NCBI GenBank assembly: GCA_964546795.1
Contig: CAZJKG010000003.1
Coordinates: forward strand, 22,305 to 86,304
Source: an uncultured Candidatus Saccharibacteria bacterium
GTDB lineage: Bacteria; Patescibacteriota; Minisyncoccia; Phycocordibacterales; Phycocordibacteraceae
Direction: 5' to 3'
Length of the DNA: 64,000 nt
A program made the position numbers and the translations under genes. Positions 1,009 through 51,147 of this stretch are shown here, one piece after another. The first letter of the stretch is position 1; the number at the start of each line of letters is the position of its first letter. A model generated the notes under the pieces. That model was not told the origin of the DNA and made no database searches. It saw only the letters and a program-made list of their open reading frames with translations.

Positions 1009-1059
1009 AAAAACCGGTAGTAGGACTCGGCTTAGCGGCCCGGAGCGCTACCGGTTTTT
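1009..1059. repeat. Hairpin repeat copy A: 12-bp stem AAAAACCGGTAG/CTACCGGTTTTT closing a 27-nt loop TAGGACTCGGCTTAGCGGCCCGGAGCG, in the rplC-rplD spacer
   Basis: The loop is 25/27 identical to the loop of the hairpin at 51071-51147. The stems differ but both pair perfectly. Confidence 0.6.
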
Positions 1060-1109
1060 TTCCTGCTGGCGACTTCGTGATTTTTTTGTGAGGGGCCATG
1101 GTATTCAAA

Positions 1110-1739
1110 TTACGCACTCACGACCTCAAGCACAGTGCCACGGCGACCCGGCACCGCGCCGGAAACGATGATCTTGCCCGCAGCCGCATCGACCACAAGC
1201 ACTTTGAGATTTTTCACGGTCACGCGGTCGGTGCCCATACGACCAGCCATGCGCATGCCTTTGGCGACACGACCTCCGGCGCGACCGCCCGAGCCGCCGA
1301 TGGAACCCGGACTGCGTTCGGTATGCTTCTGGCCGTGCGAGCGCGGGCCGCCATGGAAACCGTGACGCTTCACCACGCCAGCGAAGCCCTTGCCTTTTGT
1401 GAGACCGGAAATCTGCACGGTATCGCCGACGGCAAAGATATCTGCGTTGATTGTATTTCCTGCTACCTGCTCCTGCTCACTGCCTCCTTCGGGAATCCTA
1501 AATTCCCGAAGTGCCTTATATCCCTTGCCTTTCGTATGTCCGAGAACTGCCTTGCTGATGTTCTTTGTCCTACGAGTGCCGGTGCCGACTTGAATAGCTG
1601 CATAGCCGTCCTTGCCGTCTTTGGTCTTGACCTGAGTGACTACGACCGGATCTGCAGTGAGAATGGTCCCCGCATATGCGCGACCATCCTCCGCGAAAAT
1701 ACGCGTCATGCCTTCTTTCTTCGCGAGGATAAATTTCAT
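1110..1739 (-). CDS. rplC: 50S ribosomal protein L3
   Basis: 209 aa: MKFILAKKEGMTRIF...KGKGFAGVVKRHGFHGGPRSHGQ..., a classic L3. Confidence 0.95.
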   Translation of the reverse strand: MKFILAKKEGMTRIFAEDGRAYAGTILTADPVVVTQVKTKDGKDGYAAIQVGTGTRRTKNISKAVLGHTKGKGYKALREFRIPEGGSEQEQVAGNTINADIFAVGDTVQISGLTKGKGFAGVVKRHGFHGGPRSHGQKHTERSPGSIGGSGGRAGGRVAKGMRMAGRMGTDRVTVKNLKVLVVDAAAGKIIVSGAVPGRRGTVLEVVSA

Positions 1740-1878
1740 TTTTTATGGTGAGTACCATCGAACCAAAAGCAAAACGCGCAACAGCAAATCGCGTGCGCGA
1801 GTTGCCATAGGACCGGTCACAGACACCGTTCGTAGCGTTAGGAGCACTGTACAGGACGCATGAAAAAGATGCAAGAAA

Positions 1879-1910
1879 ACACACAACCACCCTTGCGGGC
1901 GGTTGTGTGT
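1879..1910 (-). terminator. Intrinsic-terminator-like hairpin in the 340-bp rpsJ-rplC spacer
   Basis: 10-bp stem ACACACAACC/GGTTGTGTGT with a 12-nt loop. On the transcribed (minus) strand it is followed by a U-rich tract (reverse complement of GAAAAAGATGCAAGAAAAC). Confidence 0.45.
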
Positions 1911-2081
1911 CGATTCAGCAGAATCGCCTATTGGGTTTCTTGGCAACCTTTTCGTTACACCATTCCCTCGACTGACTCGGGATTAGTTAAAACCATAGTC
2001 ACGCGGACGTTCCTTGGTTTTATACCATCTTTACCCCAGAACCACAACCTCGCTTCGCTCGGTTGGCTACGGGGCAGGCAT

Positions 2082-2522
2082 CTACACCATTTTAACGTCT
2101 ATAGTTACTCCAGACGGCAAATTTAAATTGGTGAGGGCCTCAACCACCTTTGGCGAGGGGTTCAGAATATCAATGAGGCGTTTATGAATGCGCATTTCGA
2201 ACTGTTCCCGTGCATCCTTATGGACGAACGTCGAGCGATTCACCGTCCAACGCTTGGTCTCGGTTGGCAACGGCACTGGGCCGACGACAACTGCGTCGAA
2301 GCGTACTGCGGTATCCATAATCTGCTTGACCGAGAGATCGAGAATCTTATGTTCGTAGGCGCGGACACGGATACGGAGCTTGTGCTCTATTGCCGGGACG
2401 GCGGGTGCAACTACTTTCTTCGCTCGCTTGGCCGCGGGAGTAGAAACGTGCGCCGCCTTTGCACTCTTGGCAGGTGCTTTTTTGGTGGCTGTTTTTTTCT
2501 TCGCTGCCGTCGCTGTTGCCAT
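2082..2522 (-). CDS. rpsJ: 30S ribosomal protein S10 with a Lys/Ala-rich N-terminal extension
   Basis: The core KLRIRVRAYEHKILD...VVGPVPLPTETKRWTVNRSTFVHKDAREQFEMRIHKRLIDI matches S10. About 45 extra N-terminal residues (MATATAAKKKTATKK...). The ORF begins 28 bp after tuf. Confidence 0.9.
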   Translation of the reverse strand: MATATAAKKKTATKKAPAKSAKAAHVSTPAAKRAKKVVAPAVPAIEHKLRIRVRAYEHKILDLSVKQIMDTAVRFDAVVVGPVPLPTETKRWTVNRSTFVHKDAREQFEMRIHKRLIDILNPSPKVVEALTNLNLPSGVTIDVKMV

Positions 2523-2550
2523 GTTGCAATATGCTTCGCTATTGCACTGC

Positions 2551-3750
2551 TTATGCCGTGATCTTTGTCACGACGCCGGCACCAACCGTCTTTCCGCCTT
2601 CGCGGATGGCGAAGCGCTGTTGCTCTTCAAGAGCGACCGGTGCGACGAGCTTCACTTTGAAGGTGACAGTGTCTCCCGGCATGACCATTTCCTTGCCTTC
2701 CGCAAGAGTTACCTCGCCGGTAACGTCGGTCGTACGGATGTAGAACTGTGGCTTGTAGCCGGAGAAGAACGGCGTGTGACGGCCTCCCTCATCTTTGGAA
2801 AGGATGTAGACCTCTGACTCGAAATCGGTGTGCGGCGTGACCGAACCGCTCTTCGCGAGGACCTGGCCGCGATGCACATCTTCTTTCTTGGTGCCGCGCA
2901 GAAGAATGCCTGCATTGTCGCCTGCCATACCTTCCTGAAGCTGCTTGTTGAACATTTCAATACCGGTGACGGTCGTCTTCGCCGTCGGCTTGATACCGAC
3001 GATCTCAACTTCCTCACCGACTTTTACGGCGCCGCGCTCAATGCGACCAGTGACGACAGTTCCGCGACCTTCAATTGAGAAGATGTCCTCAATCGGCATG
3101 AGGAACGGTTTGTCGGTCTCGCGCTTCGGTTGGTCGAAGTACGTGTCCATCGTGTCCACGAGCCCTTTCACCTTGACCGCCCATTCGTCGCTAGCATCCT
3201 TGGCATCAAGCGCTTTGAGCCCAGAACCTCGAATAATCGGCGTATTTACGCCATCGTAGCCCTGCTTGGTCAGGAGCTCGCGGATTTCCTCTTCAACGAG
3301 ATCGATGAGATCCTGCTCGGCGACCATGTCCACCTTGTTGAGGAAGACGATGAGCTTCTTGAGACCCACCTGTTTCGCAAGGAGGATGTGCTCGCGTGTC
3401 TGCGGCATCACGCCGTCAGTCGCAGCGACCACGAGGACGGCTCCGTCCATCTGGGCGGCACCAGTGATCATGTTCTTGATGTAGTCGGCGTGTCCCGGTG
3501 CGTCGATGTGCGCATAGTGACGATTCGGTGTCTCGTACTCCGAGTGATGGAGTGCAATAGTAATACCGCGTGCCTTCTCTTCCGGCGCGCTGTCGATCTT
3601 ATCAACTCCTTCGACGCGGGCGGAGTAGCCCTCGCCAGTGAGCATTGAGAGCACATGCAGGATACCTGCCGTGAGAGTCGTCTTTCCATGGTCCACGTGA
3701 CCGATGGTGCCGACGTTCATGTGCGGCTTGCTGCGATTAAATTCTGCCAT
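2551..3750 (-). CDS. tuf: Elongation factor Tu
   Basis: 399 aa, [11 protein letters not shown]-loop; overall sequence diagnostic of EF-Tu. Confidence 0.97.
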
Positions 3751-49950: not shown

Positions 49951-49968
49951 ACTCTATACTTCCAACAT

Positions 49969-50286
49969 ATGAACATGGAATCACTTGGACAGAACGGCGG
50001 TATTGAGGGACTGATGTCTGCTTTTATTGATAATCACCCGGAATATAAAGAAAAGAATTTCACTCGAGAGGAAATTCATCAGGCAGCGGAACTCATTAAA
50101 AATCGGGATGCAAGTTCGGTTCAGGAAATGTTGCAACGCGCACTTGACGCTCGTGTTGCTGTGCGAGGGGTCAAAGAGAAAATGCCGGTGATAAATAATC
50201 GGGATGCGGTGATTGGTATAGGAAGCACACTAGAAGAAGCACGAGCGATGTATAGAAAAGATAACGAGACGCGCGACTCAATATAA
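49969..50286 (+). CDS. Hypothetical protein (105 aa), AT-rich
   Basis: ATG at 49969 (MNMESLGQNGG...). No family recognised. Confidence 0.4.
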   Translation: MNMESLGQNGGIEGLMSAFIDNHPEYKEKNFTREEIHQAAELIKNRDASSVQEMLQRALDARVAVRGVKEKMPVINNRDAVIGIGSTLEEARAMYRKDNETRDSI

Positions 50287-50335
50287 TAAATAGATGAAGG
50301 GCGCCCGCGACGTATCGCGAGCGCCCAAAACGACT

Positions 50336-50491
50336 TAATGAACGGTCACCACTGTGCGGTTAAAATCTGCTGCAAAAGATAGAATTTCGAGTGCCCGCTT
50401 GGGACCGTTCTTCCGAATCAACTGCTCGATACTCTTGTCGCCCGGATCAATGAGACGAATCCGAGCGGTCTCCTCTAGAGTTCTCGGTCTC
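50336..50491 (-). CDS. Small hypothetical protein (52 aa) below the ORF-track size cutoff
   Basis: Hand translation gives MRPRTLEETARIRLIDPGDKSIEQLIRKNGPKRALEILSFAADFNRTVVTVH. A strong SD AAGGAGGAGGG lies 5 nt upstream. Confidence 0.35.
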
Positions 50492-50548
50492 ATCGTCCCT
50501 CCTCCTTGTGTTGGGTTCCTGAAATACCATACTATACTTTGCTGAATT

Positions 50549-51065
50549 ATGCAAGTTTTTCAAAATAGTAGGTTTCTGTTCCTCTGTATCGTGATTCTTA
50601 TAGCAGCGAACATTTTCGTGTATCGCGCAGTGGTCGCGCCGCACATATTAAAAGTATCGGTGTTGGAAGTGGGTCCGCCAGCCGGCGGAGGCAACGCAAT
50701 TTTGATACAAAGTCAGAACGGAAAAACATTTCTCGTAGATACCGGACCGGACGCGAGCATTCCGTGCTCTCGGAGAGACATTGCCGATGTGGCAGAGAAA
50801 TATTGATGCCGTCATTCTTACAGGCACGAAGACCTCTTTTGTCGGAGGGTTACCGGAAGTTGAAAGTCGATATCGTGTCGGAGCGCGTATGCATTTTGGC
50901 GACGCTGTCGTTCCATACGGTACGTCTCTGACGTTTGACGGATTTCGTATTGAAATAATTTCTCCCGGAACACTTATCGTCTCCTATGGCGCGACTTTGT
51001 TCACTATCTCCTCCTCCACGCCCGCAGGTACCTATATTTCAGACGGAGTATCTATACAGAAATAA
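50549..51065 (+). pseudogene. ComEC-type metallo-beta-lactamase domain in two overlapping frames (frameshift near 50790)
   Basis: ORF 50549..50806 (LEVGPPAGGGNAILIQSQNGKTFLVDTGPD) and ORF 50781..51065 (IDAVILTGTKTSFVGGLPEV) together resemble the ComEC C-terminal MBL domain, which is missing from comEC at 47918..49417. Confidence 0.5.
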
Positions 51066-51070
51066 GATGT

Positions 51071-51147
51071 GAGCCGGAAAACTGAAAAAAGAGAGTAGGA
51101 CTTGGCCTAGCGGCCCGGAGCGCTCTCTTTTTTCAGTTTTCCGGCTC
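51071..51147. repeat. Hairpin repeat copy B: perfect 25-bp stem with a 27-nt loop TAGGACTTGGCCTAGCGGCCCGGAGCG, immediately after the rpmB stop
   Basis: GAGCCGGAAAACTGAAAAAAGAGAG / CTCTCTTTTTTCAGTTTTCCGGCTC. The loop matches copy A (1009-1059) at 25 of 27 positions. Confidence 0.6.

Follow-up and report, generated by a model that had tools for sequence, protein, structure and literature searches.

The window analysed here, a 64,000-nt stretch of the genome of an uncultured Candidatus Saccharibacteria bacterium (contig CAZJKG010000003.1), contains two hairpins, copies A and B, that carry nearly the same 27-nt loop on different stems; coordinates are window positions unless a locus of another genome is named. 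We put at about one in two the probability that the two are copies of a small palindromic insertion element, non-autonomous and specific to the Paceibacteria, within the Patescibacteria or Candidate Phyla Radiation (CPR). Under this proposal the copied unit would be the loop with the inner part of the stem, and one particular strand, folded as a single-stranded hairpin, would be recognised through the loop by a trans-acting enzyme conserved in the clade. Intrastrand template switching would then make the outer arms or keep them perfect, flip the loop and copy the local flank across. Two of these steps, recognition of the single-stranded hairpin via its loop and the maintenance, extension and loop flipping by template switching, are ones that we infer. 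Copy A is an insert in the N-terminal extension of ribosomal protein L4. Copy B is an intergenic copy, and any role it has as a bidirectional terminator may be incidental.

The original prediction described two 27-nt loops identical at 25 of 27 positions, each with its own stem, and both were found again where it had placed them. Loop A (TAGGACTCGGCTTAGCGGCCCGGAGCG, 1021-1047) and loop B (TAGGACTTGGCCTAGCGGCCCGGAGCG, 51096-51122) both read on the + strand; 100 shuffles of the window gave no such match, and no third copy within three mismatches is present in the window. The stems had been called unrelated, and each copy does have a stem of its own, but they are alike next to the loop, where the 5' arm of each has a run of A and the 3' arm a run of T, a feature of the family as a whole. 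Stem A, given earlier as 12 bp, does have 12 perfect pairs but then goes on to 23 nt (998-1020 with 1048-1070) at 87% complementarity, and all three non-complementary positions are G·T on the + strand. The perfect 25-bp stem of copy B, placed after the rpmB stop, was recovered as an inverted repeat of 25/25 bp (51071-51095 with 51123-51147) that occupies the 81-nt gap between the end of the convergent open reading frame (ORF) at 51065 and the rpmB stop at 51147-51149. Copy B had also been taken as a terminator for the convergent gene, which it may be. As + strand RNA copy A folds at -32 kcal/mol (z = -5.3 against shuffles), compared with -26.2 kcal/mol for the - strand, and + strand RNA of copy B folds at -54.6 kcal/mol (z = -10.4). 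The parts of the two copies and the neighbours of copy B are as follows.

998..1070, + strand: copy A, whole element; inverted repeat, 79.4 bits and E=3e-19 with the family covariance model R1, core on the + strand and antisense to rplD
998..1020, + strand: 5' arm of copy A, GCTAGCGGGAGAAAAACCGGTAG, pairing with 1048-1070 by way of three G·T
1021..1047, + strand: 27-nt loop of copy A, with the 23-nt searched core at 1023-1045 and a mini-hairpin, GGCT-TAGC-GGCC, at 1029-1040
1048..1070, + strand: 3' arm of copy A, CTACCGGTTTTTTTCCTGCTGGC
51071..51147, + strand: copy B, whole element; inverted repeat of 25/25 bp, 95.8 bits and E=1e-23 with R1, between convergent genes
51096..51122, + strand: 27-nt loop of copy B, with a mini-hairpin, GGCC-TAGC-GGCC, at 51104-51115
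50781..51065, + strand: convergent ORF, ending 5 nt ahead of the copy B hairpin
51147..51389, - strand: rpmB (L28), whose stop at 51147-51149 overlaps the last base of the hairpin

A family of such elements was recovered when one genome per prokaryotic species was searched for exact matches to the core GGACTNGGCNTAGCGGCCCGGAG. The search returned 55 loci in 41 species-level assemblies, all of them Patescibacteria/CPR, with the labels Kaiser-, Adler- and Harrisonbacteria, Paceibacterota and Minisyncoccia, together with metagenome-assembled genomes (MAGs) bearing generic labels; viral contigs gave no match. There are up to five exact copies per MAG and two in the 64 kb of the window. Around every copy there is a separate inverted repeat, the ungapped arms of which have a median length of 23 nt, and the element as a whole measures 73-77 nt. 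Within it the conserved 27-nt apical loop has the form GTA-GGACTYGGCCTAGCGGCCCGGAG-CGC (GTA-GGACTYGGCYTAGCGGCCCGGAG-CGC in the family model), the inner stem of about 11 bp is typically A5-6-GNGNG with CNCNC-T5-6, and about 12 bp beyond it differ from locus to locus. A diverged copy (core AGACCGGCCTAGCGGCCTTGGAG) lies on the - strand at about 7458 of L045, with a stem of its own and at a locus that also has a canonical copy. A K-turn reading of the loop was considered and dropped, as by eye there is no 3-nt bulge beside the possible tandem G·A pairs. The loop may also bear some likeness to the sarcin-ricin loop or to loop E of 5S rRNA.

Pairing of the arms was assessed in an ungapped alignment of 37 copies against 500 shuffles, none of which reached the observed value in either measure. 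Paired cells made up 89.4% of the alignment compared with 64.2% after shuffling, and two-sided changes were found at 25 of 32 pairs, in 304 cells against 87 in the shuffles. Pairing fell to 37-49% when the 3' partner was slid by one to three columns, and left and right arms were complementary at 0.77 within a copy but only 0.40 across copies. In a scan of the window with R1, which was built from the same alignment, the hits that follow copies B and A are hairpins without the core, at 23.5 bits or less. It had been suggested that the loop is recognised by something and that the stem need only pair, and 55 further copies with massive compensatory variation bear this out. Rfam 15 reported four tRNAs in the window and only generic hairpin noise at copies A and B; across the window, the long-form loci described below and 18 further loci, only tRNAs and rRNAs reached the gathering threshold, and E-value scans added nothing beyond miRNA-like hairpin noise. 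A literature search on the core sequence and on palindromic or in-frame hairpin repeats in CPR found no description of the element, and the family is apparently undescribed.

The copies also have a polarity that does not depend on their hosts. With the core replaced by GAAA, and the + strand taken as that on which the core reads GGACT..., the arms fold better as the + strand in 45 of 52 copies, by -5.2 kcal/mol on average (Wilcoxon p=2e-8, a value that, like the p value given below for the inner arms, is optimistic because orthologous copies are not independent). In the 37-copy alignment G·T or T·G pairs number 38 on the + strand and A·C or C·A pairs 8, and at the second pair out from the loop two purines face each other in 21 copies, two pyrimidines in three. 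The bias is the same for copies that are sense or antisense to a host gene and for intergenic ones, and the orientation of the core has no relation to the local gene strand (20 versus 33). Since the bias holds whatever the direction of the host, something appears to see one self-folded strand independently of host transcription; that strand may be either single-stranded DNA or RNA.

Comparison of arms within and between genomes helps to define what is repeated. The inner 11 nt of the arm are more alike within a genome than between genomes (identity 0.73 against 0.53, p=2e-6), whereas the outer 12 nt are at the random level in both cases (0.32 and 0.31); in JBEKSI01, for example, all four copies have the inner arm GAAAAAGTGGG. 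As the inner arm is common to a genome and the outer arm is not, the repeated unit would seem to consist of the loop and about 11 bp of inner stem, or about 50 nt in total. Viewed as a possible miniature inverted-repeat transposable element (MITE), the element has its inner 11 bp in common within genomes and termini that are locus specific. Between filled and empty RarA genes the difference is 63 nt, that is, the loop, two inner arms and about 12 nt, and in this pair, only 77% identical, these 12 nt look like an inverted copy of the left flank of the host. It has been described that template switching between inverted repeats homogenises their arms and inverts their spacers (PMC8604942, PMC7202029). 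The window has another palindrome behind the gene for tRNA-Gly(GCC) at 27553-27624 (27611-27634 with 27648-27671, the whole spanning 27553-27671), the left arm of which holds the 3' acceptor end of the tRNA and the right arm an inverted copy of it. It looks as though a terminator hairpin has been enlarged here by the copying of a functional flank, the 3' end of a tRNA; palindromes in the genome of the window do extend in this way.

About half of the copies are intergenic. As a rule they begin at a stop codon, or no more than a few bases away from one, and take up the entire spacer. About 11 are in sense and 10 in antisense orientation to genes; some lie between divergent genes and others between convergent pairs. 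The remaining copies are in frame within long ORFs, and Pfam matches place both flanks of the insert in one domain or protein. The hosts recognised in this way are MiaA, IF-2, ArgRS (inside the DALR domain), a class-V aminotransferase (cysteine desulfurase), RarA/MgsA (between the Walker motifs), a PrmC/HemK-like methyltransferase and a methylpurine glycosylase (Mpg); L4, with both flanks in one frame, is another. Stop codons occur in two of the six frames of the core and all four open frames are used, giving the peptides GLGLAARS, RTWPSGPER, LRAARPSP and RSGPLGQV. Both orientations of the core are found, at times at one site in different species, and among the copies examined no ORF was seen to end inside the core. 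Reading frames have thus been kept by selection, and the inserts are therefore translated and not removed. The element lands and is kept only where it is harmless, namely in gaps after stop codons or, in frame, in flexible linkers and protein extensions, and in-frame copies are simply translated as an insert of 20-30 residues in whichever open frame applies.

Copy A is a case of this kind, and the genes concerned are these.

323..1099, - strand: rplD (L4) with its N-terminal extension; ORF, with homologues that have the same start and an in-frame element
1110..1739, - strand: rplC (L3), with its stop 10 nt upstream of the L4 start; its orthologous neighbours match Pfam Ribosomal_L3

It had been placed in a 124-bp spacer between rplC and rplD and taken as an argument that L4 begins at 985. 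With the rplC stop codon occupying 1110-1112 and the conserved start codon of L4 occupying 1097-1099, the supposed spacer is lost and the hairpin falls within the L4 frame. Most Paceibacteria have an L4 of 230-260 amino acids with a Lys-rich N-terminal extension starting M-[AT]-x-x-KKI. In the window and in its close relatives L066, L068, L069 and L070 the ATG lies 10 nt past the rplC stop, and in L065 and L067 it lies within 10-15 nt of it, again in an ACCATG/ACTATG context. These, together with L047, are the alleles inspected, and with or without the element their frame is open as far as IFSMEGKK. At least 12 distinct L4 sequences (74-81% identical to that of the window) have an in-frame element read as KSPAGKKP-VALRAARPS[PL]T-TGFSPAGS, in which the two arm-encoded peptides co-vary. 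From the open frame and these homologues it follows that L4 starts at 1099, not 985, and that the hairpin is coding. The extension codons lie at 986-1099 and copy A is translated in frame as ...KSPAGKKPVALRAAKPSPTTGFSPASSS..., the peptide stretches spanning the insert being VALRAAKPSPTTGF and PVALRAAKPSPTTGFSPASSSVEMPIFSMEGK. The public 215-residue protein for this sequence (P0002), which starts further in, at MEGKK, is a truncated gene call. An S10-like ORF in the window (2082-2522, - strand) also has an N-terminal extension, of about 45 residues and rich in Lys and Ala, like the L4 extension that hosts copy A.

Turnover can be followed where orthologous sites are compared. The best 120 IF-2 homologues were assigned to the closest motif with up to three substitutions, which includes a few weak matches, and about 30 of them have an element-derived peptide in the linker before LPxxIKTD. 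The peptides are in three frames (18 LRAARPSP, 5 RSGPLGQV and 7 RTWPSGPER) and several are degenerate. Closest relatives among them, 91-96% identical once the linker is set aside, differ in having the other orientation, a second type of palindrome or no recognisable insert (P0125/P0164, P0126/P0127, P0147/P0135 and P0155/P0158). At the site of copy A, an L4 that is 94% identical (P0003; L067, about 940-1000) has another, perfect 10-bp palindrome, CTCCGCGCGC-GAA-GCGCGCGGAG, one that is 91% identical (P0011) has none, and in one that is 93% identical (P0001) 18 nt are missing from one arm, between CTA microhomologies; in P0015 and P0095 only a homologue of the gene-proximal arm remains. The RarA site is filled in L030, L053 and L022 and empty in L035 (77% identical), a difference of 21 residues. 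Decayed cores occur too, as in L073, where the core has many substitutions and the arms still pair. The loop is inverted at orthologous sites in IF-2 (L010 against L050), in the HemK methyltransferase (L033 against L048 and L051), upstream of ftsK (L036 against L055 and L060) and downstream of rpmB (copy B against L014). In the last of these, a distant genome whose L28 is 50% identical, a copy directly after the rpmB stop (L014, 6956-7040) has the same inner arm as copy B (CTGAAAAAGAGAG) and the loop inverted relative to rpmB.

The second palindromic insert type in IF-2 is seen in the linker of L071, about 60 codons before LPLVIKTD, where it is translated as SAKKSSDLLSGPAIAAGPGRPDFSAD, and many genomes have it in this linker. 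Part of its loop, TAGCGGGCCCGGA, shows a relation to the core, and a wider superfamily of palindromes probably exists.

Two exact-core loci have a long form, in which 57 extra nt (ACCAATTTyyCTTGCCyGTACTCrGGCTTAGrrAAATGrAAGTrCyCyTGTGGTGCG) follow GGAG-CG, before the right arm. A metagenome scan for it gave nine hits, four of them real (one duplicating L055) and five due to chance. There are five distinct loci in all, directly after fmt in L025 (5236-5350), L057 and L061 and upstream of ftsK in L055 (4960-5085; identical with L062) and L060. The extra part forms an internal hairpin of its own, in which changes are compensated. At the ftsK site of L036 the element is in its short form, and nothing follows fmt in L028. 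The neighbours, assigned by eye and for three of them by tblastn, are fmt, ftsK, a winged-helix-type protein and a large surface protein; by eye, in ORF translations on which no Pfam scan was run, no transposase or mobility gene lies beside the long form. The long form may be ancestral to the short form or be its source.

Several observations weigh against an insertion element as the explanation. No transposase, recombinase or reverse transcriptase was found beside any copy, the long form included, in the 8 kb or less read around each, and no consistent direct repeat that would mark a target-site duplication was found at the junctions of the copies. The left boundary keeps a constant distance from the loop, with A in 29 of 37 copies followed by G-C-C-R-G-C, which free extension of a palindrome does not predict; the whole is often 5'-GA[GCCRGC...GCYGGC]GAA-3', in which the GA...GAA flanks could be either a 2-nt duplication or tandem G·A pairs. 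A 23-nt core that is identical in 41 species-level genomes is more conserved than selfish repeats usually are, and this may point to a host function or to a partner that is itself highly conserved. The locus-specific outer arms show the + strand bias as well, which looks like selection in place and not only at transposition. Transposition on the lagging-strand template would predict a bias of core orientation relative to GC skew, and 27 copies lie one way and 26 the other, the window's own skew being too noisy for use. It is conceivable, if on balance doubtful, that the element reflects something new in kind. This could be an undescribed CPR mechanism acting on the hairpin strand, with a clade-wide enzyme that reads the loop, insertion or copying of the unit with an "inverted target duplication" of host flank and repeated remodelling of linkers in essential proteins; or it could be a domesticated host signal in + strand RNA or DNA, of which selection in place would maintain dozens of copies, some of them within coding sequence.

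The other explanations differ mainly in what they make the hairpin do. It could be a structured RNA motif on the core strand that serves the host, whether as a hairpin to which a protein binds, as a signal for processing or stability or as a small RNA; a conserved protein or RNA of CPR would be contacted by the loop, and the long form would be the full RNA. The tolerance of G·U pairs and purine·purine mismatches on the + strand only would suit an RNA, as would a loop able to form a mini-hairpin and an internal loop with possible tandem G·A pairs, the clade-wide conservation of the core, and the occurrence of the long form, with its compensated extra hairpin, at two conserved intergenic sites in the direction of fmt and ftsK. 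We nevertheless regard an RNA function as unlikely, since with an orientation that is random to genes half of the copies would need an antisense promoter of their own and no conserved promoter is present; moreover, copies are patchy among close relatives, cores decay where arms persist and there is no Rfam match. A mobile terminator-like cassette resembling the SPRITE repeat would consist of an A-run, a short G+C-rich hairpin and a T-run, working together as a bidirectional intrinsic terminator; it would have spread to gene ends through its usefulness there and would have entered genes by accident. It would account for a U-tract after the inner hairpin on both strands, for the fact that most intergenic copies abut stop codons and fill spacers, convergent pairs such as that of copy B included, and for the absence of the T-run from several intragenic copies (IF-2, MiaA, cysteine desulfurase, RarA). 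The A- and T-runs are, however, intact inside L4, ArgRS, Mpg and HemK, and ending transcription there would do harm; in addition, the long stem holds the U-tract in base pairs, and some copies separate divergent genes. As the terminator-like hairpins ordinary in the genome of the window have loops of 1-9 nt and no core, and the conservation of a 27-nt loop would be left unexplained, we consider this quite unlikely.

A site in duplex or cruciform DNA to which a clade-specific protein binds, with a chromosomal role such as nucleoid organisation, recombination or DNA uptake, would agree with an orientation independent of transcription, with exact sequence kept across many genomes and with a loop rich in short palindromic tetramers. 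A strand-specific mismatch pattern is not expected of a duplex, and such a role is made improbable also by the low copy number and by patchiness in close relatives. A perfect stem of 23-25 bp is an ideal substrate for a double-strand RNase, and inserts do sit in essential genes, so that one might think of an intervening sequence cut from the mRNA or bypassed by the ribosome, leaving the protein without it. But removal would impose neither the retention of frame nor the avoidance of the two stop-containing frames, both of which hold at about ten independent sites and in dozens of alleles, and in the half of copies that are antisense the mRNA has the weaker hairpin; this is very improbable. Hardly credible is an autoregulatory or attenuation hairpin common to the S10 operon and rpmB, one of the two options first put forward, even though both copies in the window adjoin ribosomal-protein genes and the L014 copy follows rpmB. 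Most copies lie in or beside non-ribosomal genes (the same loop is in or next to IF-2, MiaA, RarA, ArgRS, methyltransferase, cysteine desulfurase, DNA glycosylase, fmt and ftsK, in either orientation), copy A is coding and antisense to rplD instead of lying in an untranslated leader, and close relatives have no element in L4. The other option, a family of repeats like the repetitive extragenic palindromic (REP) elements, was the nearer of the two to the insertion element that we favour.

Some further features of the window may be recorded. Just upstream of copy B, the + strand ORFs at 50549-50806 and 50781-51065 overlap in different frames and may represent a frameshifted or split gene. Of the two copies, a scan for terminators picked out no more than a sub-hairpin within A; it flagged nothing at B, the loop of which exceeds the limit of the scan. 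Perfect hairpins of 14-16 bp with loops of 1-9 nt, none with the conserved loop, occur at 31137-31171, 10425-10455, 33347-33383 and 44121-44149, the first and third with A-rich and T-rich outer ends; they are likely to be the ordinary bidirectional terminators of this genome. A yidC-like gene (- strand), dnaA (60706-62091, + strand) and dnaN (62203-63303, + strand) were recognised from their translations in 59431-63303, and the chromosomal origin region is probably inside the window. Copies A and B lie to one side of the dnaA/dnaN region and in one orientation.

If confirmed, the insertion element would be a clear case outside Rickettsia of palindromic repeats that are routinely found in frame in essential genes, and this in CPR genomes that are otherwise minimal. 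It has a bearing on annotation, in that gene callers truncate L4, as in the 215-residue call, and in that the "hypervariability" of linkers in IF-2 and other proteins is explained. The 23-nt core or R1 provides a sequence tag towards the enzyme or partner that recognises the element. It also offers a natural system in which to consider the tolerance of hairpins in coding DNA, the growth and flipping of palindromes by template switching, and the creation of protein segments by selfish DNA.

Among known systems, the behaviour of the element is closest to that of the Rickettsia palindromic elements (RPEs; Ogata et al. 2000). RPEs are dispersed, lie in frame in the ORFs of housekeeping genes and have no known transposase (PMC10969869). 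The two have in common that they are short palindromic repeats of a reduced genome, present in intergenic positions and, with striking frequency, in frame in unrelated housekeeping ORFs, where they are translated as an extra peptide. RPEs are about 100-150 bp long, conserved along their whole length, and give one conserved peptide in one frame. The CPR element, on the other hand, is about 73-77 nt long with only the 27-nt loop and inner stem conserved, has four open frames and so four peptides, occurs in both orientations and belongs to another phylum; the likeness drawn here is one of behaviour.

REP and REPIN elements, which are associated with RAYT transposases, are likewise short repeats that form hairpins (PMC3733652). 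The element resembles REPs as a multi-copy family of strand-specific imperfect hairpins, which in REPs are recognised as single-stranded DNA by a domesticated HUH enzyme, in its long vertical persistence, and in a GTAG tetranucleotide, present here only at the junction of arm and loop. It differs in that REPs conserve the stem and a GTAG or CGTC tag at its 5' foot and vary in the loop, which is the reverse of the pattern described here; REPs are also extragenic and reach hundreds of copies, whereas the element is often intragenic with at most five exact copies per MAG, and no RAYT gene was seen in the 8 kb or less around copies. Integron attC sites, the attP(+) of CTX phage and HUH origins with a conserved loop and a variable stem are folded single-stranded substrates of recombination or nicking. 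The element would share with them the use of one folded strand, the precedence of structure over stem sequence and a conserved unpaired part; unlike them it has no integrase, Xer-dependent phage or Rep gene associated with it in the 8 kb or less around copies, and its loop, much longer than theirs, contains a mini-hairpin.

SPRITE of Streptococcus pneumoniae, named as a terminator-like MITE (PMC10969869), is likewise small and dispersed, is built like a rho-independent terminator and lies at gene ends, but the CPR element occurs in frame inside genes as well and has a large conserved loop, and termination by it is putative. The mitochondrial genes of Nematomorpha contain coding palindromes (PMC6649704), which are like the element in that long inverted repeats, perfectly matched, lie within genes for proteins and are translated in both arms. 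The inverted repeats attributed to template switching are similar in that their arms are kept complementary and their spacers inverted (PMC8604942, PMC7202029). Unlike the CPR element, neither kind is reported to have a common conserved loop or to form a dispersed repeat family.

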